A stretch of 64,000 nt of DNA. Origin: Bdellovibrionales bacterium. Its GTDB lineage: Bacteria > Bdellovibrionota > Bdellovibrionia > Bdellovibrionales > JAUICD01. Shown in pieces: positions 5,989 through 44,171 of the stretch. How positions within the stretch are numbered: position 1 is the first letter of the stretch; every line of letters starts with the position of its first letter. The notes under the pieces were generated by a model. The model saw only the letters and a program-made list of their open reading frames with translations. It made no database searches and was not told the DNA's origin. The stretch lies in the NCBI GenBank assembly GCA_965262715.1, contig OZ253553.1, forward strand, positions 832,001 to 896,000, given 5' to 3'. The translations under genes were made by a program, and so were the position numbers.

Positions 5989-6121
5989 CACTCAAAATAA
6001 ACGGATTTTTGAGGCAATCAGCATTTTGTTGGGGAATACATCCCGTAGGGACATACATCCCGTAGTGTTAACCGTCACGCTGATTGCCCAAAAATGGTCA
6101 GAGGCCAGTTTATTTTTAGTG
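5989..6121 (+). repeat. Family-1 structured repeat, copy C
   Basis: P1 cactcaaaataaac/gtttatttttagtg; P2 tttttg(a)ggcaatcagc/gctgattgcccaaaaa; P3 tggtc-aga-ggcca. Confidence 0.8.
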
Positions 6122-6587
6122 AGACAGAAACGAGAGGCATTTTTAGTGAGACAGATGTGATTAGTTAGGGAAAGGTAGTGGGAATAGCTGAAAAGTTTCC
6201 CTAACATTTCGTTAGAGAGCAAGGAGTATCTTCTTAGTAAAAATGCCTCATACTTTCTAGGCAGTAAGCTATTTCCTGAAGACATGAGTCTTCAGGCTTA
6301 CTGCCAGAAAGTCGCCGGAGGCGAGAGGTATTTTTAGTGAGACAGAAACGAGAGGCATTTTTAGTGAGATAGATGTGATTGGTTAGGGAAAGGTAGTGGG
6401 AATAGCTGAAAAGTTTCCCTAACATTTCGTTAGAGAGCAAGGAGTATCTTCTTAGTAAAAATGCCTCATACTTTCTAGGCAGTAAGCTATTTCCTGAAGA
6501 CATGAGTCTTCAGGCTTACTGCCAGAAAGTCGCCGGAGGCGAGAGGTATTTTTAGTGAGACAGAAACGAGAGGCATTTTTAGTGAGA
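6111..6587 (+). repeat. 218-bp tandem repeat (~2.2 copies) carrying family-1 element copies A1 (6236-6339) and A2 (6454-6557)
   Basis: Units start at 6111, 6329 and 6547 and are near-identical. Confidence 0.92.
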
Positions 6588-25510: not shown

Positions 25511-26050
25511 TTAATTTAAATTTTGTCGTATTTGGGCAACATAAGGTAAGTTTCTAAAATATCCTTGATGTTCTAAACCATACCCTGAGACACATTGTTC
25601 TTTAATCTCAAAACCCGCATAATCTATATTGATGTTTGCCTTAAGAGTGGCGGGCCTTAAAAGGAATGTTGCTGTTATTAAAGATTTTGGTTTTCCAATA
25701 TTTATAAACTTTTTCAAATACTCCAAACCAAATCCAGTTACGACAATATCTTTTATCAAAAGAACATGTTTATCTCTAATAGACTCAGAAAGGTCCAATG
25801 TAAATGTATGAAATTGACGAGTTGTATCTTCCAAATGAGTGGACATGTCAATGAAATCACATTGAATGTCTCTATTGATAGAGCGGATTAAGTCAGAATA
25901 AAATACAAAAGATCCTTTTAAAGCGCAAATAGCTGTGAGGTCTTCATCCGGAGGAAATCTTTTAGAAATTTGCGCGCCAAGCTCCTTTATGCGATTTTTG
26001 ATTTGTTCTTCAGAAAAAAGGACTTTAAAATTTTTTGGGTGAGGTAACAT
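25511..26050 (-). CDS. Hypoxanthine phosphoribosyltransferase-like protein with a degenerate PRPP motif
   Basis: LFSEEQIKNRIKELG, LKGSFVF, DYAGFEI..GYGL..RNLPY; motif reads LLIKDIVVTG. Confidence 0.8.
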   Translation of the reverse strand: MLPHPKNFKVLFSEEQIKNRIKELGAQISKRFPPDEDLTAICALKGSFVFYSDLIRSINRDIQCDFIDMSTHLEDTTRQFHTFTLDLSESIRDKHVLLIKDIVVTGFGLEYLKKFINIGKPKSLITATFLLRPATLKANINIDYAGFEIKEQCVSGYGLEHQGYFRNLPYVAQIRQNLN

Positions 26051-26164: not shown

Positions 26165-26255
26165 TGGCGGAGGGGGAGAGATTCGAACTCTCGGTACTGA
26201 AGACCAGTACGACAGTTTAGCAAACTGCTGGTTTAAGCCACTCACCCACCCCTCC
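26165..26255 (-). tRNA. tRNA-Ser(GCT)
   Basis: GGAGGGG acceptor stem; anticodon arm GCAGT-TTGCTAA-ACTGT; long variable arm; GTTCGAATC T-loop; encoded CCA. Confidence 0.96.
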
Positions 26256-29234
26256 TTTTTCACTAAAATGCATCTCGCCTCTGGCGATTTTCTGACAGTC
26301 AGCCTGAAGGTTCACACCTTCAGAAAAAGCTGACTGTCTAGAAAAACTGATGCATTTTAGTAGGAAGAATCTTCTTGTTTTTTTTAAACATGTTAAGGAA
26401 ATCATCCCCTTTTCAGTCTATTTATCTTCCAAAGCTAATATTTGTGCAACAGATATTTTTTTTGTTGTTCCCACATTCAAGTTTTCTCTGAAAGAAAAGA
26501 TAAAAAATAATAGAATGTCTTTGGCCTCAAAATAAGCTTTATCTCTTTTCATTTATCATTGTTTTTTGAAATAACCGTTAGTGTTATTTCAAAAATAAGA
26601 GATACAGCAATGAAAAGAGACCGGAGGGCTTATTTTGAGGGAAACAGCTAGCAAACTGCTGGTTTAAGCCACTCACCCACCCCTCCTTTTTCACTAAAAT
26701 GCATCTCGCCTCTGGCGATTTTCTGACAGTCAGCCTGAAGGTTCACACCTTCAGAAAAAGCTGACTGTCTAGAAAAACTGATGCATTTTAGTAGGAAGAA
26801 TCTTCTTGTTTTTTTTAAACATGTTAAGGAAATCATCCCCTTTTCAGTCTATTTATCTTCCAAAGCTAATATTTGTGCAACAGATATTTTTTTTGTTGTT
26901 CCCACATTCAAGTTTTCTCTGAAAGAAAAGATAAAAAATAATAGAATGTCTTTGGCCTCAAAATAAGCTTTATCTCTTTTCATTTATCATTGTTTTTTGA
27001 AATAACCGTTAGTGTTATTTCAAAAATAAGAGATACAGCAATGAAAAGAGACCGGAGGGCTTATTTTGAGGGAAACAGCTAGCAAACTGCTGGTTTAAGC
27101 CACTCACCCACCCCTCCTTTTTCACTAAAATGCATCTCGCCTCTGGCGATTTTCTGACAGTCAGCCTGAAGGTTCACACCTTCAGAAAAAGCTGACTGTC
27201 TAGAAAAACTGATGCATTTTAGTAGGAAGAATCTTCTTGTTTTTTTTAAACATGTTAAGGAAATCATCCCCTTTTCAGTCTATTTATCTTCCAAAGCTAA
27301 TATTTGTGCAACAGATATTTTTTTTGTTGTTCCCACATTCAAGTTTTCTCTGAAAGAAAAGATAAAAAATAATAGAATGTCTTTGGCCTCAAAATAAGCT
27401 TTATCTCTTTTCATTTATCATTGTTTTTTGAAATAACCGTTAGTGTTATTTCAAAAATAAGAGATACAGCAATGAAAAGAGACCGGAGGGCTTATTTTGA
27501 GGGAAACAGCTAGCAAACTGCTGGTTTAAGCCACTCACCCACCCCTCCTTTTTCACTAAAATGCATCTCGCCTCTGGCGATTTTCTGACAGTCAGCCTGA
27601 AGGTTCACACCTTCAGAAAAAGCTGACTGTCTAGAAAAACTGATGCATTTTAGTAGGAAGAATCTTCTTGTTTTTTTTAAACATGTTAAGGAAATCATCC
27701 CCTTTTCAGTCTATTTATCTTCCAAAGCTAATATTTGTGCAACAGATATTTTTTTTGTTGTTCCCACATTCAAGTTTTCTCTGAAAGAAAAGATAAAAAA
27801 TAATAGAATGTCTTTGGCCTCAAAATAAGCTTTATCTCTTTTCATTTATCATTGTTTTTTGAAATAACCGTTAGTGTTATTTCAAAAATAAGAGATACAG
27901 CAATGAAAAGAGACCGGAGGGCTTATTTTGAGGGAAACAGCTAGCAAACTGCTGGTTTAAGCCACTCACCCACCCCTCCTTTTTCACTAAAATGCATCTC
28001 GCCTCTGGCGATTTTCTGACAGTCAGCCTGAAGGTTCACACCTTCAGAAAAAGCTGACTGTCTAGAAAAACTGATGCATTTTAGTAGGAAGAATCTTCTT
28101 GTTTTTTTTAAACATGTTAAGGAAATCATCCCCTTTTCAGTCTATTTATCTTCCAAAGCTAATATTTGTGCAACAGATATTTTTTTTGTTGTTCCCACAT
28201 TCAAGTTTTCTCTGAAAGAAAAGATAAAAAATAATAGAATGTCTTTGGCCTCAAAATAAGCTTTATCTCTTTTCATTTATCATTGTTTTTTGAAATAACC
28301 GTTAGTGTTATTTCAAAAATAAGAGATACAGCAATGAAAAGAGACCGGAGGGCTTATTTTGAGGGAAACAGCTAGCAAACTGCTGGTTTAAGCCACTCAC
28401 CCACCCCTCCTTTTTCACTAAAATGCATCTCGCCTCTGGCGATTTTCTGACAGTCAGCCTGAAGGTTCACACCTTCAGAAAAAGCTGACTGTCTAGAAAA
28501 ACTGATGCATTTTAGTAGGAAGAATCTTCTTGTTTTTTTTAAACATGTTAAGGAAATCATCCCCTTTTCAGTCTATTTATCTTCCAAAGCTAATATTTGT
28601 GCAACAGATATTTTTTTTGTTGTTCCCACATTCAAGTTTTCTCTGAAAGAAAAGATAAAAAATAATAGAATGTCTTTGGCCTCAAAATAAGCTTTATCTC
28701 TTTTCATTTATCATTGTTTTTTGAAATAACCGTTAGTGTTATTTCAAAAATAAGAGATACAGCAATGAAAAGAGACCGGAGGGCTTATTTTGAGGGAAAC
28801 AGCTAGCAAACTGCTGGTTTAAGCCACTCACCCACCCCTCCTTTTTCACTAAAATGCATCTCGCCTCTGGCGATTTTCTGACAGTCAGCCTGAAGGTTCA
28901 CACCTTCAGAAAAAGCTGACTGTCTAGAAAAACTGATGCATTTTAGTAGGAAGAATCTTCTTGTTTTTTTTAAACATGTTAAGGAAATCATCCCCTTTTC
29001 AGTCTATTTATCTTCCAAAGCTAATATTTGTGCAACAGATATTTTTTTTGTTGTTCCCACATTCAAGTTTTCTCTGAAAGAAAAGATAAAAAATAATAGA
29101 ATGTCTTTGGCCTCAAAATAAGCTTTATCTCTTTTCATTTATCATTGTTTTTTGAAATAACCGTTAGTGTTATTTCAAAAATAAGAGATACAGCAATGAA
29201 AAGAGACCGGAGGGCTTATTTTGAGGGAAACAGC
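26218..29234. repeat. Tandem array of 7 apparently identical 431-bp units, each containing the tRNA-Ser 5' half, a family-1 element, a long hairpin and the trmD 3' end
   Basis: Units start at 26218, 26649, 27080, 27511, 27942, 28373 and 28804; the ORF track repeats with an exact 431-bp period. Confidence 0.97.
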
Positions 29235-30010
29235 TTTTTGGCATCTTTTGGAAGACCACAAGTTTCTCGTTCTTTTTCAGATAGATCCCAATAAAACTCT
29301 TCAATAGCCTTTTTTTCCTCAATAGAAATTTTATGAGCTTCTAGAAGGTGAGGTCTGCGAAAAAATGTTCTTAAAGTAGCTATTTTTCTCTCCCAGTCAG
29401 CGATTTCCTGATGATGGCCACTCAACAATACTTCAGGAACAGATCGCCTATTAAATACTCTAGGACGGGTGAACTGTGGTGGCTCTAAAAGTCCTTTTTC
29501 ATCGAAAGAATCTTTCTGTGAAGATACTTGATTGCCTAAAATTCCATGTTGCAACCGGACAATAACATCAATGACAACCATAGCAGCTAGTTCTCCACCG
29601 CTTAGAATATAGTTTCCAATAGACAATTCAATATCTATATCATCACAAATAACTCTTTCATCGATTCCTCCATAACGACCACAAATTAATATGAGTTGAT
29701 TTTTTTCGCTCAAGTCTCTAGCTAAGTCTTGAGTGAGAAGATGGCCTTGAGGACTCAAATAAATAGAAAGAGATTTAGGATGCCTTTTTATAGACCTGAT
29801 GGCCTTTGACAAAGGCTCTGGTCGATAAATCATTCCGTCACTACCTCCAAATGGGCGGTCATCTACCTGTTTGTATTTTTTGTCAGAAAATTGACGCAAA
29901 TCTATAGGATTTAGACAAATTTTATTGTCTAAAATTGCTTGCCCCACAATTCCTTTAAAGGCTGTTGACACAAAGATGTCTGGAAAAATTGTGACTATGT
30001 CAAGTTGCAA
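29216..30010 (-). CDS. trmD: tRNA (guanine37-N1)-methyltransferase
   Basis: VDDRPFGG, YLSPQG, CGRYGGIDER, SIGNYILSGGE, VPEVLLSGHH. Confidence 0.97.
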   Translation of the reverse strand: MQLDIVTIFPDIFVSTAFKGIVGQAILDNKICLNPIDLRQFSDKKYKQVDDRPFGGSDGMIYRPEPLSKAIRSIKRHPKSLSIYLSPQGHLLTQDLARDLSEKNQLILICGRYGGIDERVICDDIDIELSIGNYILSGGELAAMVVIDVIVRLQHGILGNQVSSQKDSFDEKGLLEPPQFTRPRVFNRRSVPEVLLSGHHQEIADWERKIATLRTFFRRPHLLEAHKISIEEKKAIEEFYWDLSEKERETCGLPKDAKKLFPSK

Positions 30011-30677
30011 AAAGATTCGCCTTTTTTCTGCCTTTGAAAGATTTATTTTTTGAAAGAAGGAGATTTTTCATGTTTTTATTTGGTATTTCATCTAAAAGAC
30101 CTTCTGGCAAATCCATGTAGACGTGTTGAGCTTGCCAGTCAATTTGAACTAGAAACTCTCTTACAAAAGGAATATCATAAATGTATCCATCTTTTTTGAC
30201 TTGAATGAGGTCTTGATGGCCATTAGAAGAAAAACTAACAATAGGTCCTATTTGATGGCCTAAATTGATCACTATAAAATTCTTAAGTTCAATGAGGTAA
30301 ATTTCTTCGCCTGATTGACTGGTAAAGCTAGATATAGGAACACTTACAAAAGCCCCATGCCACTTTTCAGCTTCTGAGCGGTCATCACAACCTTGAAATT
30401 TTACAATATAGCCTTCTTTGTGATTTCTAAAATAGTCAATATTAAAAGTAGAACTCAATTCTGCTTTCAAATTTACAATAGATTGAGGAGATTTGCCCTG
30501 TATTAAAGCATTTGTTTTCCTGTCTTTTATTAAAGTAAGTTCAGAGAGGTTATAAATCCATTTGGCCTGTCGAGTAAAAGGAAGAATAAATAGCTCTCCT
30601 TTGATACCATAAGCTCCTTTTACTTTGGCAAGTCTTATACTCTCTTTAAATTTGTTATTTGTTCTTGTCATTAGCAA
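30000..30677 (-). CDS. rimM: 16S rRNA processing protein
   Basis: GAYGIKGEL, DDRSEAE, GEEIY, IPFV..DLPEGLL; overlaps the trmD start. Confidence 0.9.
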   Translation of the reverse strand: MLMTRTNNKFKESIRLAKVKGAYGIKGELFILPFTRQAKWIYNLSELTLIKDRKTNALIQGKSPQSIVNLKAELSSTFNIDYFRNHKEGYIVKFQGCDDRSEAEKWHGAFVSVPISSFTSQSGEEIYLIELKNFIVINLGHQIGPIVSFSSNGHQDLIQVKKDGYIYDIPFVREFLVQIDWQAQHVYMDLPEGLLDEIPNKNMKNLLLSKNKSFKGRKKANLFAT

Positions 30678-37230: not shown

Positions 37231-37579
37231 CCTGAGTTTGACACTTAATTTGAATTTTCGTGATATTTTTTTCAAGGAATGTTGTATTTATAGTCATTAG
37301 CGGTTATTGTGTTTGTATTTTGGTCAAAAAGTGTAGTGTACTTATTTATCATACACTACGCGTCATATACCTTATTTTCTTTTATTTTTTATATTTTTCT
37401 TGTAATGTATTTTTATGTTCATAAGGTCTACAAGAAATCCGAGAAGGGACATATATTATCATCTTGTTGAGAGCTACAGATTAGGTTCTCAAGTGAAGCA
37501 AAGGATTCTAATGTCTTTAGGTAAAGCCGCGGATAAGGAAGTTAACTTGAAGAAGCTTCTAGAAGTTGAGGTGTACCCT

Positions 37580-38362
37580 TTATTTGGAGGATCCGTTCCA
37601 TATTTTACTCACTTCTGAGATTCCCATTGTTGTTAATTCTCCTGTTTTCCATTTAGCTTCAAATTCATTAGGTGATAAGTAACCTAATGAAGAATGTCGC
37701 CTTTTTTTATTATACATACCTTCGATAAACTTTGGAATACTTCTTAATACATCTTCAAAAGTTTTATATTCACACAGATGAACCTCTTCTCGTTTTAAAG
37801 AGCTAAAGAAAGATTCAACAAATGCATTATCCCAACAATTGGCTTTTCTCGACATACTGATCTTAAAGCCTTTTTCTTTAAGCTTGTAGGTATAATCTTT
37901 ACTGGTGTATTGCACACCTTGATCACTATGATGAATACATCCTTTAGTATCTGATCTCTGCTCTAAACTCATCTCTAAAGCTCCTAAACAAAGCTCTGTG
38001 TTGATCTCTCTAGAAATAGCCCACCCTACAATCTTCCTTGAAAAAATATCTAAAATCACTGCTAAAAAAACAAAACCATCTTGAATCCTAATGTATGTGA
38101 TATCTGTTACCCAAAGCTGGTTGGGTCTATTCACTTCAATGCCAAAAGTTAAATTCGGATAAACTCGATTTGAATGTTTAGAATCCGTGGTTGAAACCTT
38201 AAAACCTTTGTAAATCAAAGCCTTTAAACCGTATTTCCGCATAATGCGAGCAATCCTCTTGTGGTTGGCTTTAATACTCTTCTCTTGCTCAAGTTCCAAT
38301 TGAATACGACGTATTCCATACATCGGGTATTTACACTGTATCCTCTCAATCTGCTCTTTCAA
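37580..38362 (-). CDS. IS3 transposase OrfB (integrase-core DDE); frame extends upstream to the A7 slippery site at 38527-38533
   Basis: WVTDITYI, HHSDQGVQY, DNAFVESFF..LKRE. Confidence 0.93.
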   Translation of the reverse strand: MKEQIERIQCKYPMYGIRRIQLELEQEKSIKANHKRIARIMRKYGLKALIYKGFKVSTTDSKHSNRVYPNLTFGIEVNRPNQLWVTDITYIRIQDGFVFLAVILDIFSRKIVGWAISREINTELCLGALEMSLEQRSDTKGCIHHSDQGVQYTSKDYTYKLKEKGFKISMSRKANCWDNAFVESFFSSLKREEVHLCEYKTFEDVLRSIPKFIEGMYNKKRRHSSLGYLSPNEFEAKWKTGELTTMGISEVSKIWNGSSK

Positions 38363-38433
38363 ATCAAAATCCCTTTGCTCTCGCTCTTGCTGTGAAATCT
38401 TTCTCTTGTAATAGTAGCTACTTAAAGGTAACC

Positions 38434-38784
38434 CTAACGCTTTACACGTTTTTGAAATTGATCCAAATTCTTTCCAGTGATTACCGACGATCCTACGCTT
38501 TTCCTCTGTTGAAGCTCCTTTTTGGCTTTTTTTAAAAACTCGTTTTCTAAGCTGAGCTGTCCTACCTTTGCCTGAAGAGCATATATTTGTCTCTCTAGAG
38601 ATCTCTCCCTTGATGAAGGGTTTCCCAAAGGTGTCCCTTGTTGATACTTCTTAAACCACTCTAAGACTGTTTGGCGATGAAGTTGATGCTCCCGGCAAAT
38701 CTCTAACAAAGATCTGCCTTCATGCATCGATTTACAAATAGCTTCCTTAAATTCAACATTAAATCGTCTTCTTACTTTGCCCAT
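38434..38784 (-). CDS. IS3 transposase OrfA (HTH plus leucine zipper)
   Basis: RRRFNVEFK, ENEFLKKA; TTA-AAA-AAA-G slippery site whose -1 frame is open into OrfB. Confidence 0.92.
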   Translation of the reverse strand: MGKVRRRFNVEFKEAICKSMHEGRSLLEICREHQLHRQTVLEWFKKYQQGTPLGNPSSRERSLERQIYALQAKVGQLSLENEFLKKAKKELQQRKSVGSSVITGKNLDQFQKRVKR

Positions 38785-40506
38785 GATCTTCCTCCTGATC
38801 TTATAGCTTTTTATAGCTAAAATTCAGGAATCTCAAGTGAGTTACTTTATCACTTAACTCTCCAGTTTATGGGGTACAGACCAAGTATTATCTAAAGAGT
38901 TAGAGATAATTCCTGCTAGTAAGTTATTAAAAGAGATTGATGTTAAAGACACTTTTATATTAGGTCCCTTACTTATAATAGATGCTATTTTCAAACAATT
39001 AAATCTCTATGAATTATTAACAGATTTAAAACAAAAGCACCCTAAAGTACAATTTGATTTTGTTAAGATTATTTTTACATTGGTTATAAGCCGTTTTGTA
39101 GAGCCATGTTCTAAGCTTAAAGTATTTTCACACTGGCAGAAGTTATTTTACCCTGATTTTTTAGAAGAGGAGCTTCATCTTCAAGACATTTATCGTTCTT
39201 TAGATATTCTAAGTAAGCATAAGGAAGATATAGAGAAGACTCTTTATACACAAGGTAAGTCTCAGTTAAGTTTTTTCAATGAGTGTGATGTTATTTTGTA
39301 TGATTTAACGACATTGAGATTTGAGAGTACCCGAGAGGATTTAGATAATCTTCGAAGATTTGGTTATAGCAAAGAGAAGAGGAGTGATTGTACCCAGGTG
39401 GTATTTGGACTTTTAGTAGATAGAGAAGGTATGCCCTTAGGCTTTGATGTTTATCCTGGAAATACCTTTGAAGGTAAAACCATACCTTCAGTTATGGAGA
39501 AACTAAAAAAGAAGTTTAAGATCAGAAGATTTATATTAGTAGGAGATAGAGGTTTATTTTCTAATGAGAATTTACAATCTGTAAAAGCAAAGGGAGATGA
39601 ATTTATAGTAGGATTAAAGCTAGGTTTATTAAAGGATCGTCATGCAGAGATATACAATTTAAAGAATTTTAAATTTATAAATGAAAATTTAGCTATATAC
39701 GAGACGAGTTATAATGATAATCGTTGTATAATTACCTGGTCAAGAAAGAGAGCAGAACGAGATAAGAAAGTAAGAGAAGATATTCTATCTAAGTTAGAAG
39801 ATAAGCTTTCAAAATCGTCATCAAGCACAAAGGATTTTGTATCTAATAGCAATTATAAGAAGTATATTATTCATCCTAAGAGTAAAGGCAAGCCTACTTT
39901 AAATAAGTCAGCCATAGAACAATCAGAGAGGACAGATGGTTTTTTTGGAATCATTACAAATACAGATAGTTTAAGTTCTGAAGAGATTATAACGAACTAT
40001 AAGCAATTATGGAAGGTAGAGAATTCATTTAGAGAATTGAAAGGTACATTAAAGACACGTCCTATGTTCCACTGGACAGATAAGAGGATCTTAGGACATT
40101 TAGTTGTGTGTTTTTTATCTTACTTATGTGAGGCTTATTTTTCAAAGAAGTTACATCAGAGAAACATCACATTAAAAGATAAAGCAATTACAGACAAGAG
40201 AATAAAGTCAAGGCCATTGAGTGTGGCAGAAGCTATGTCAAAGCTGAAAGAAGTACGAGCTATACCTGTGAGGATAAAGGATAAGACACTTTGGATCAGA
40301 ACAGATATTAACGGTAACAATGCTGATGTATTTAAAGCTATAGGAGCAAAGATCCCATCAAAACAACTTAAAGTAGAATCTACTTAGACCTACAAACAAT
40401 CTCTTAAATCTCTACCACAAAATCAAAATGTAGTGGTACAAAATCACACATCCACTGTAACTAACTAAAATAACTTAACTTTATTTTCGCAACTGTCAAA
40501 CTCAGG

Positions 40507-41084: not shown

Positions 41085-44000
41085 ATGAAAAAAATAATGA
41101 AATTCTTTAGGGTTATAAAAAAACGAAACATAAAAAAGCATTTTTTGTTAAGTTTTAATAATGCCTTTTATCTACTTCTATTGGCTTCACTTTTCTTGTT
41201 ATTAGCTTTTCAAAACTGCGGTTCAAATGTAAGTCAAGCTCCTAACCTGTTTTCTGAACAAACGGTATCTAATGATAAAGGTTATATTATTGCTTATTTA
41301 CCATCAGAAGATGAAAGCATCTCGATAGAAGATTATTTCCTAATTGATAGTGATGTGAAACTAAAGGTTATGAATAGTCATTCTGATTCTGAAGATTTTA
41401 AATGGAAAATCACTAGAGCCTTTGAAACTATTACTGATGGAGAAGAGACAACAACTGAACCAGAATACCAACATAAATTCGAACAATATGGAAGTTACGA
41501 TATTTTTGCTACATCTTATAAAAGCTCTGATTTGTTAACCGTGGCCAGTAAAAGACTTGTGATTGGTGAGGAATGCTCATTAACAGATGTCTTAGAGATA
41601 TTTCTTGAAAGCGGTTCTTTGACTGTTGGACAGACTGCCACTTTTGAATTAAAGAATGCTATAGATTTTTCGAACATCTTATGGAAGGTCACATTACCTT
41701 CTTCAACTGAGGAGACAAACGAAGATGATAGTGAAAGTATTGAATTAGACTTTACCAATGAATCTGCTGGTTCTGTTACTATTGAGGTGTCTGCAGAAGA
41801 TCCTGACAATTCTGATTGCCTCACCTATCGAAAACAAGTTTTGCAAGTGAGCTCTAATTCTAAACCTCATTTTAATCCAATAATTATTAAACATAATGAT
41901 GAAGAAATTGCTGTGATGTTAGAAAGTAATAACATTTATAAGTATTTAAGACCTGAAGGTGGAACTTGGACATTACATACAAATATTCAAAATGCTAATC
42001 AATGTGAACTTCAAATTGATAGTGGCAGTGAGGATGTACTAAATTGCAGTGATGGTGTAATAGACATCACTTCAACTGAAGTCTGTGTAAAAAGTACTAT
42101 AGCAATACAAGCTTCAACCTCTTCTTCTACCACTATAGATAGTCAAACTTCGGCAGATGATATAGTTGAACAGTTTTATTATAATTACTGTCCATCAGAT
42201 GGCAGCTATTGTTATTTTTCCGGACCTTTACCTGGTCCATTAAGTTATCAGACCTGTGACAATTCTATATTAGGCCAAGCTGTTACACGCAATCCATCTT
42301 CAATCGTAAATGGAGAATGTAATAACTCCGTCAAAAATGGTTGTATTCAAGGTACTTTAAATGACATAGATGATTCAGAAACTCATTATCAGTGGCAGTG
42401 TTTAGGTACCAACGATGGCACTGATGCTACAGGTTGCTGCAGTATGGCCATTGATACAGCAGCACCAATAAATGGTGTTTGCGGCGATGACACCATCAGA
42501 AATGGTTGTACTGCTGGGACTCCAGACGACGGCGCAATAGCTGATACAAGTACTCATTATACATGGCATTGTGTTGGCTCAAATGGTGGTGCAACAGCAA
42601 GTTGTACAAAAGCTATACCTCCTGTCAACGGCGTTTGTAATAACAGTCAACAAAATGGTTGTTCTTCGGGCACAGCAAATGATGCAGCTATAGCCGATAC
42701 AAACACTCATTATACATGGCACTGTGAAGGTTCAAATGGAGGCAGCACTGCTACAAATTGTCAAAAAGCAAAATCTGCACCAGTAAACGGCGTTTGTAAT
42801 AACAGTCAACAAAATGGTTGTTCTTCGGGCACAGCAAATGATGCAGCTATAGCCGATACAAACACTCATTATACATGGCACTGTGAAGGTTCAAATGGAG
42901 GCAGCACTGCTACAAATTGTCAAAAAGCAAAATCTGCACCAGTAAACGGTGTTTGTAATAATAATCAAAGAAATAGCTGTTCTTCGGGCACTGCAAACGA
43001 TGGCGCAATAGCCGATACAAATACACATTATACATGGCACTGCGTAGGTGCAAATGGAGGCACTACTGCTACAAATTGTCAAAAAGAGAAACCTGTTAAC
43101 GGTGCTTGTAATAATGCTCAAAGAAATGGCTGTTCTTCGGGCACTGCAAACGATGGCGCAATAGCTGATACAAATACACATTATACATGGCATTGTGTAG
43201 GTGCAAATGGCGGCACTACTGCTACAAACTGTCAAAAGGCAAAACCTGTTAAAGGTATTTGTAATAACAGTCAACAAAATGGTTGTTCTTCCGGCACAGC
43301 AAATGACTCAGCTATAACCGATACAAATACTCATTATACATGGCACTGTGTGGGTAAAAATGGAGGCAGTACTGCTACAAATTGTCAAAAGGCGAAACCT
43401 GCATCAGTAAACGGTGTTTGTAATAACAGTCAGCGAAATGGCTGCTCTGCTGGCAGAGCAAACGACGCCGTAATAGTCGATACAAATACACATTATACAT
43501 GGCACTGTGAAGGTTCAAATGGCGGCACTACAGCACAAAGTTGTCAAAAACTAATGCCTATCCATGGCGTTTGTGATAACAGTAAACAAAATAGCTGCTC
43601 TTCCGGCACTCCAAACGACGGCGTTATTGCAGATACAAATACACATTATACATGGTACTGCATAGGTGCAAATGGCGGCACTACTGCTATAGATTGTCAA
43701 AAGCTGATACCTATCGATGCCGTTTGTGATCAAAGCCAAAGAAATGGTTGCTCTGCTGGGACTGCAAAGGCATTGCCAGATAATACACATTCCACCCTTT
43801 ATCTATGGACTTGTGAAGGTTTGCATGGAGGTGGAAATCAAAGTTGTACTAGATTAAAAAGTATCATCGAAGGAGTTTGTGATAACAGCCAACGAAATGG
43901 CTGCAGCTCTGGGACTCCAGACGATGGCGCAATAAATGATACAGATACACATTATACATGGCTCTGTATGGGTGCAAATGGCGGCGCTACTGCTACAAAT

Positions 44001-44171
44001 TGTCAGATACAGAAAACACCTATCAATGGTTCTTGTAATCTGGGGCAAAGGAATGGTTGCTATTCGGGCACTCCAAAGGCACAGCCAGATGATGAGATAA
44101 ATAACTCTTATGTATGGCTTTGTGAAGGTTCAAATGGCGGCAAAACAGCAAGATGTTTCAAACGAAGATAA
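41085..44171 (+). CDS. Large surface lipoprotein: Ig/PKD-like N-terminal half plus 12 four-Cys repeats of ~51-53 aa
   Basis: LAFQNCG lipobox; repeat consensus PVNGVCNNSQxNGCSSGTANDxAIADTNTHYTWHCxGxNGGxTATNCQK. Confidence 0.88.
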   Translation: MKKIMKFFRVIKKRNIKKHFLLSFNNAFYLLLLASLFLLLAFQNCGSNVSQAPNLFSEQTVSNDKGYIIAYLPSEDESISIEDYFLIDSDVKLKVMNSHSDSEDFKWKITRAFETITDGEETTTEPEYQHKFEQYGSYDIFATSYKSSDLLTVASKRLVIGEECSLTDVLEIFLESGSLTVGQTATFELKNAIDFSNILWKVTLPSSTEETNEDDSESIELDFTNESAGSVTIEVSAEDPDNSDCLTYRKQVLQVSSNSKPHFNPIIIKHNDEEIAVMLESNNIYKYLRPEGGTWTLHTNIQNANQCELQIDSGSEDVLNCSDGVIDITSTEVCVKSTIAIQASTSSSTTIDSQTSADDIVEQFYYNYCPSDGSYCYFSGPLPGPLSYQTCDNSILGQAVTRNPSSIVNGECNNSVKNGCIQGTLNDIDDSETHYQWQCLGTNDGTDATGCCSMAIDTAAPINGVCGDDTIRNGCTAGTPDDGAIADTSTHYTWHCVGSNGGATASCTKAIPPVNGVCNNSQQNGCSSGTANDAAIADTNTHYTWHCEGSNGGSTATNCQKAKSAPVNGVCNNSQQNGCSSGTANDAAIADTNTHYTWHCEGSNGGSTATNCQKAKSAPVNGVCNNNQRNSCSSGTANDGAIADTNTHYTWHCVGANGGTTATNCQKEKPVNGACNNAQRNGCSSGTANDGAIADTNTHYTWHCVGANGGTTATNCQKAKPVKGICNNSQQNGCSSGTANDSAITDTNTHYTWHCVGKNGGSTATNCQKAKPASVNGVCNNSQRNGCSAGRANDAVIVDTNTHYTWHCEGSNGGTTAQSCQKLMPIHGVCDNSKQNSCSSGTPNDGVIADTNTHYTWYCIGANGGTTAIDCQKLIPIDAVCDQSQRNGCSAGTAKALPDNTHSTLYLWTCEGLHGGGNQSCTRLKSIIEGVCDNSQRNGCSSGTPDDGAINDTDTHYTWLCMGANGGATATNCQIQKTPINGSCNLGQRNGCYSGTPKAQPDDEINNSYVWLCEGSNGGKTARCFKRR

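Follow-up and report, generated by a model that had tools for sequence, protein, structure and literature searches.

A perfect seven-copy array of tRNA-Ser 5' halves in a Bdellovibrionales genome, probably seeded at the 3' end of a reversed hairpin repeat

The tandem repeats at tyrT of Escherichia coli lie downstream of the tRNA, hold its 3' end, and are diverged. In integrative elements, the anticodon loop of tRNA genes serves as an integrase crossover zone. Fragments of tRNA genes are usually ascribed to such elements (PMC9897764, in part). A further class of repeats, the BIME-2/REP sequences of E. coli, is amplified by TnpA-REP; the published model invokes a nick, primed synthesis, and rejoining near the hairpin (part of PMC3333891), and the exchange rule calls for two C^T sites on one strand (parts of PMC3333891 and PMC8266576). 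Insertion sequences of the IS1634/IS1549 type generate target duplications of 8-514 bp, for which, according to part of the text of PMC2266710, no mechanism had been proposed. A literature search, largely of open-access papers, found neither the element family treated here nor such upstream arrays of tRNA halves described.

The locus lies in the genome of a Bdellovibrionales bacterium (2.94 Mb, single contig; GenBank assembly GCA_965262715.1; here G000), within a stretch of 64,000 nucleotides that was analysed as a whole and is called the window below. It resembles tyrT in that tandem repeats with part of a tRNA adjoin the gene, but the array is upstream, holds the 5' half, and has identical copies. 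With the tRNA fragments of integrative elements it shares partial tRNA copies beside an intact gene; the unit, however, carries neither integrase nor cargo, and what has been duplicated is the neighbouring stretch from trmD to the tRNA, in situ. Intergenic hairpin repeats by the hundred, with near-identical tandem copies at any one locus, recall the BIME-2/REP sequences (parts of PMC3333891 and PMC8266576), and the TnpA-REP amplification model has the same shape as the jump-back that we propose below (PMC3333891, in part). In contrast to these, the element here is a three-way junction of ~160 nt and the unit carries host flank; moreover, a REP is a palindrome of 20-40 nt with a 5' GTAG, whereas our element has no conserved GTAG at its stem foot. 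IS1634/IS1549, a family active in this genome, likewise leaves perfect duplications, tens to hundreds of bases long and with no homology at their ends, but the array has no IS between its copies, its junction sits at the end of a hairpin element, and the target matrix fits it poorly.

On the minus strand the order is rimM, trmD, the array, tRNA-Ser(GCT), hpt, and glmS. A preliminary description, made from the letters alone, had reported seven copies of a 431-bp unit and 5' halves of tRNA-Ser(GCT) upstream of the intact gene, and both observations were borne out. A direct test gave period-431 identity without a mismatch over 26218-29235 (3018 bp, or 7 x 431 + 1), and Tandem Repeats Finder returned a 431-bp unit in 7.0 copies with 100% matches over the same interval; there is a single distinct unit sequence (7/7 units identical), the count being that of the assembly. 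Six exact 38-nt copies of the half accompany one complete tRNA, which is the single tRNA found by ARAGORN and Rfam in the window (26165-26255, minus strand) and the sole carrier of that anticodon in the 39 calls made by ARAGORN across the genome. The features of the locus, in window coordinates, are:

25511..26050, minus strand: hpt, downstream of the tRNA; sigma-70-like site at 26138-26110
26165..26255, minus strand: intact tRNA-Ser(GCT), its first 38 nt being the end of the leftmost unit
26218..29235, no strand assigned: tandem array, seven 431-bp units without differences and a 1-nt terminal overlap (period test, Tandem Repeats Finder)
26252..26410, minus strand: element copy A, a canonical ~160-nt repeat (159.7 bits; included in the model)
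26411..26474, no strand assigned: AT-rich spacer, peculiar to the locus, across which copies A and B stand back to back by their 5' ends
26475..26650, plus strand: probable element copy B, the 116-nt hairpin of the preliminary description with its flanks (covariance model, 31 bits)
starts at 26906, 27337, 27768, 28199, and 28630, and last at 29061-29236, plus strand: further positions of copy B
26645..26652, plus strand: novel junction, first of six, the 3' end of B joined to AG in the antisense of the tRNA anticodon loop
26649..26686, minus strand: tRNA-Ser 5' half (nt 1-38), first of six, 100% identical over 38 nt
27080-27117, 27511-27548, 27942-27979, 28373-28410, and 28804-28841: remaining five tRNA-Ser 5' halves, 100% identical over 38 nt
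29216..30010, minus strand: trmD, its last codons and stop within the 3' arm of copy B
30000..30677, minus strand: rimM, upstream of trmD

The two repeat ends of the array share 1 nt in register, and the junction carries no inserted bases. The microhomology proposed earlier (AAACTGT in the tRNA, AAGCTGT in trmD) is a real match, but it lies one base off the repeat register, in which the overlap is the 1 nt just given. The unit is strongly structured (z -9.4); the array has no ORF of at least 80 aa, and no integrase or cargo lies between the partial and the intact tRNA. Because the copies are identical, the array suggests a recent event. The junction is probably real; the number of units, taken from the assembly, could be wrong or differ from cell to cell.

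By BLAST, unit positions ~240-395 match more than 300 other places in the genome. A sequence profile of this element family gives 453 matches at E<1e-5, covering 2.2% of the genome, which is a lower bound as an AT-rich subfamily escapes the profile. The consensus of ~160 nt forms a three-way junction with a branched 40-pair stem, in which 28 pairs are changed on both sides among 48 copies. Rfam holds no family for it. G001, a genome of the same genus, contains the family in abundance; searches of G002 and G003 found none. Copy A abuts the 5' end of the tRNA with its 3' end, and this arrangement recurs every 431 bp up to 28838-28996; the adjoining spacer (unit positions ~151-210) has no other BLAST cover in the genome. 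Elsewhere in the window there are a second element array (6111-6587; 218 bp x 2.2, with repeated 27-nt element tails) and a 1028-aa ORF with coding repeats of 153/159 bp (41085-44171), which has several paralogs in the genome and belongs to no NCBIfam family.

The 116-nt hairpin of each unit had been read as a leader unrelated to this element; its full-length match to a covariance model indicates that it is probably a reversed copy, B, of the same family, diverged, AT-rich, and oriented opposite to copy A. The model was built from 48 family copies with B left out, and B matches it over positions 1-160 at 31 bits in 7/7 units (E about 4e-4 in 64 kb); the best background in the window scores 14.4 bits and the other strand of B 8.6 bits. 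The plus strand of B forms the tiers of stems typical of the family and ends in the family end TTTTGAGGGAAACAGC. With the sequence profile, the 3' arm of B alone matches, at 8.8-9.7 bits, the maximum of a reversed-genome control being 9.5. True elements can reach 23 bits on the wrong strand in the covariance model, and a paralog of B (77% identical; G000:C1:387300-387445), itself of the AT-rich subfamily missed by the sequence profile, scores 20 bits on the opposite strand. We therefore take the stem and end of B to be derived from the family; its 5' part is probable, its assignment not being firm. The 3' arm of B encodes the last codons and stop of trmD; compared with its counterparts in G001 and G002, TrmD is longer by 6-7 residues at its end. 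The unit is probably, then, two elements back to back, one with its 3' end at trmD and the other at the tRNA. Measured from copy A, the junction lies 42 nt downstream, inside the tRNA, and it looked like an exception until B was recognised. The earlier suggestion that an embedded element drove the amplification stands in so far as the array is element-linked; the responsible copy is probably B at the junction rather than the mid-unit copy A, 42 nt away.

Near-perfect tandem arrays overlap an element in 27 of 73 cases in this genome, and the non-coding ones with a period of at least 100 do so in 22 of 27, compared with 23% of non-coding windows drawn at random. Ordinary recombination between adjacent copies accounts for part of the surplus. 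Many arrays, in addition, have a non-homologous junction at the element 3' end, joined ~25 to ~280 nt upstream of the element start. The end motif occurs 235 times in the genome, versus 9 times after shuffling and 32 times when the genome is reversed; it was written after B had been noticed, and the B variant makes up 10 of the 235 occurrences, 7 of these from the array itself. Among 45 near-perfect arrays with a period of at least 100, the motif lies in the junction interval or at most 6 nt from it in 13. Ten of these have their near edge at -1 to +6 nt relative to the motif; in the other three the junction interval is a shared element tail of 39-46 nt and little informative. The rule holds for three of the four arrays whose terminal overlap does not exceed 2 nt; the exception belongs to a compound repeat without the element. 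The probability that a position drawn at random falls in the junction zone is 0.07% genome-wide and 0.8% near elements (9-nt zone). Where junctions land in host DNA, AG appears among the first 3 nt in 8/9 cases versus a background of 13%, these nine having been picked by hand with one paralogous array and three in-tail cases dropped. Since the element's own continuation is usually AG, this preference fits short-homology annealing as well as enzyme specificity. The junction of the tRNA-Ser array conforms to the pattern: it lies +3/+4 nt past the end motif of B and lands on TAG, which fits the criterion of 0-8 nt plus AG. It reads GGAAACAGC and then TAGC, the same bases as at genome position 2252907, and over the last 8 nt it matches other element-end junctions base for base. 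As for where junctions land, half of the 16 sites (8) precede a stop codon in the same orientation by 19-62 nt. Six coincide with no long frame, and the remaining two fall on an open frame in antisense, although one of these is really the rpmJ tail in sense; the tails of rpmJ, 5S, and tRNA-Arg are further sense captures.

We propose, with a probability of roughly 0.68, that the array was amplified recently, starting from the fixed 3' end of the reversed hairpin repeat B, with the tRNA half as a passenger. A free 3' end would form just past folded copy B, either by the nick of a putative nuclease or by release of the folded nascent strand. It would re-anneal upstream through 1-4 nt of homology, in B's own orientation; the last bases of B are ACAG, a tetranucleotide also found in the tRNA antisense 4-7 nt ahead of the join. 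The annealed end would then be joined imprecisely at AG ~430 bases upstream and the 431 bp copied again, a primed jump-back. Expansion to seven units could have come from RecA-type recombination (RecA is present in the genome), from slippage, or from repeated rounds of the same reaction. Capture of the tRNA in antisense together with another element favours a mechanism at the DNA level over one templated by mRNA, given that antisense capture of the tRNA is hard to obtain from a read-through mRNA; the re-copying of sense tails at most clean junctions would also fit copying from mRNA. More tentatively, and we would sooner doubt than assert it, an enzyme of the genus may recognise the fold and 3' end of the element rather than its sequence, nick there, and drive one-ended rolling re-copying upstream on either strand.

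Several known agents were considered as sources of such an activity, and no mobilising enzyme came to light. A Y2 transposase, as carried by rolling-circle elements of the IS91/ISCR type, was found in 0/5 genomes, the control genomes being silent too. Retro-mobility was set aside: G001 is rich in the element, with hundreds of candidates, and has no RVT_1 match, although RVT_1 matches exist in G000. No RAYT-like gene is common to the two carrier genomes G000 and G001; the former has one Y1_Tnp gene, whose surrounding 1.8 kb shows no element copies, and the latter has none. A C^T to C^T exchange does not describe the array junction, which needs T^T or A^A at one partner site; on the antisense strand, a C^T exchange would fit 4/9 junctions. 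A REP/BIME system with RAYT was therefore rejected for want of a shared RAYT-like gene, a GTAG palindrome, and a C^T to C^T exchange. There is no replication-strand bias (95/192 element loci, 11/22 junctions). Loss of a repair gene was likewise discarded as a cause: RecA, PolA, and MutS are present in 5/5 genomes, SbcD in G000 only, and Ku in none, which forms no pattern.

The duplications could be compared across assemblies. Three contigs binned with G004 (C11, C4, and C1; L045-L047) are mostly 85-91% identical to G000 over long segments. As G004's own trmD and tRNA-Ser loci are distant from those of G000, these contigs are probably mis-binned DNA of a close relative of G000; the joint presence of the element and IS1634 in G004 was accordingly dropped as independent evidence. 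The contigs share the rpsQ junction of G000 but have two adjacent element copies there, G000 having four. G001 has arrays of its own with element-end junctions, in 17 regions of 20 kb chosen around elements (~13% of its genome), and several arrays in G000 show substitutions from copy to copy, so that they are not one read repeated. The relative's rpsQ junction, the G001 arrays, and the substituted G000 copies together establish that fixed-end duplication is a process occurring in cells. For the trmD-tRNA-Ser locus itself, a second assembly was found in 0/383 other genomes of the order, and metagenome contigs yielded five distant TrmD loci (best 49%) and no second copy of the array locus; a match in genome contigs (L084) was rejected as a second copy, being a chance 21-nt match without the hairpin.

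An artefact of assembly or library, with a single unit or a minority allele given as seven copies, would agree with the identity of all seven, and long-read metagenome assemblers are known to produce false duplications and repeats in excess (bioRxiv 10.1101/2025.04.22.649783, in part). We nevertheless consider it unlikely: the junction obeys a rule found in diverged arrays and in an independent assembly, and a 3.7-kb array with units distinguished by substitutions is resolved on the same contig. Generic slippage or template switching unrelated to element ends, with the two hairpins included by chance, could draw on the strong structure of the unit and is a route that also operates in the genus, because element-free upstream tRNA duplications exist there, namely two 46-nt tRNA-Pro 5' copies in G001 and four altered tRNA-Trp copies. 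It would, however, have to place the junction by chance in the 9-nt zone that takes up 0.8% of positions near elements and to reproduce the last 8 nt of other element-end junctions, and we regard it as quite improbable for this array. The same holds, more strongly, for the footprint of an IS1634-family insertion, in which a 431-bp target duplication would have lost its IS cleanly and then been amplified. This family has 41 matches in the genome, of which paired copies (n=29) show target duplications of 50-1666 bp, 97-100% identical, 24/29 reading A...T, and extend past the 8-514 bp given in PMC2266710; the unit fits the range of 50-1666 bp and can read A...T, and long variable repeats are known for IS1634/IS1549 (PMC2266710, in part). 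Against this, neither the junction nor the array contains an IS, an IS end, or terminal inverted repeats; the unit ends score 0.78 on the target matrix, a value reached by 14.6% of random pairs and below 23/27 real targets; and A...T occurs in 20.6% of random pairs. Ten short non-element arrays that were inspected held no other empty footprint, the five genomes have no Ku, and the position of the junction at the end of B would be left unexplained, all of which makes such a footprint very unlikely. An IS1634 copy with an inserted IS3, flanked by a perfect 189-bp target duplication, lies at 37231-40506 of the window.

A last alternative, to which we give next to no credence, is that the array was selected because it yields tRNA-half decoy RNAs or raises tRNA-Ser expression. 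Read-through from rimM-trmD would cross the six halves, all of which have a D arm and an anticodon-like stem, and in G001 too a family element lies directly 5' of tRNA-Ser(GCT). The preliminary description had foreseen an anticodon-like stem across the junction with a 6-nt loop; the stem is indeed predicted, because the end of B resembles the anticodon stem, with a pair probability of 0.73-0.88 in 3/4 fragments and 0.25 in one, but at minimum energy the loop has 4 nt instead of 6 or 7. The halves lack the T arm, the 3' acceptor strand, and the CCA end. A 58-nt junction fragment could, by prediction, fold an acceptor-like stem, which copy B's hairpin would sequester in a longer RNA. The ideas of decoys and of promoter dosage thus found no support: the break follows the end-plus-AG rule known from non-tRNA loci, the 431-bp unit has no sigma-70-like site on the minus strand, the linkage of trmD and tRNA-Ser is missing in the same-genus G001 (trmD lies elsewhere, and no halves occur within the stretch read), and the identical copies suggest a recent event. 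The six tRNA halves are, in our reading, likely passengers of the amplification seeded at B, not decoy RNAs, though they may be transcribed as a side product; the intact tRNA is untouched. On the plus strand, a sigma-70-like site lies in the 5' part of B (window 26488-26516); at its position canonical elements have TTAACA and, 17 nt later, a poor -10 box, and the count of sites is not above chance (4 found versus 2.4 expected).

Other tRNA genes of the genus show related arrangements. In G000, an element lies no more than ~21 nt from one end of the tRNA in 8/38 calls, and in four of them it meets the tRNA 3' end tail to tail. A 20-nt copy of a tRNA-Asp anticodon arm (G000:C1:2650161-2650180) lies beyond an oppositely oriented element and is possibly an older antisense capture. 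The four altered tRNA-Trp copies (G000:C1:2198524-2198951) stand directly upstream of intact tRNA-Trp in an 89-bp unit, with an 8-nt anticodon loop, a shortened variable region, and no element. In G001 the two upstream copies of the first ~46 nt of tRNA-Pro(TGG) (L062, 15710-16287) belong to a 258-bp unit with a different hairpin and without the family element. Given these element-free tRNA-Pro copies, upstream tRNA halves are recurrent by-products.

What this locus appears to add to hairpin-repeat amplification is an upstream jump from a copy that sequence profiles miss, together with the capture of host DNA in antisense. It matters as a test case for how an abundant hairpin repeat duplicates host DNA, and not as a tRNA-half system. 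Copy B has drifted in sequence and kept its fold and end, yet it seems to be the starting point of the duplication. For annotators, the array means that upstream tRNA 5' halves can arise without integrases. If an enzyme of the genus does read the fold and 3' end of the element, the process would be a RAYT-free relative of BIME amplification that re-copies gene ends, even through an essential tRNA, and the array, fired from a copy missed by sequence profiles, would be its cleanest test substrate.
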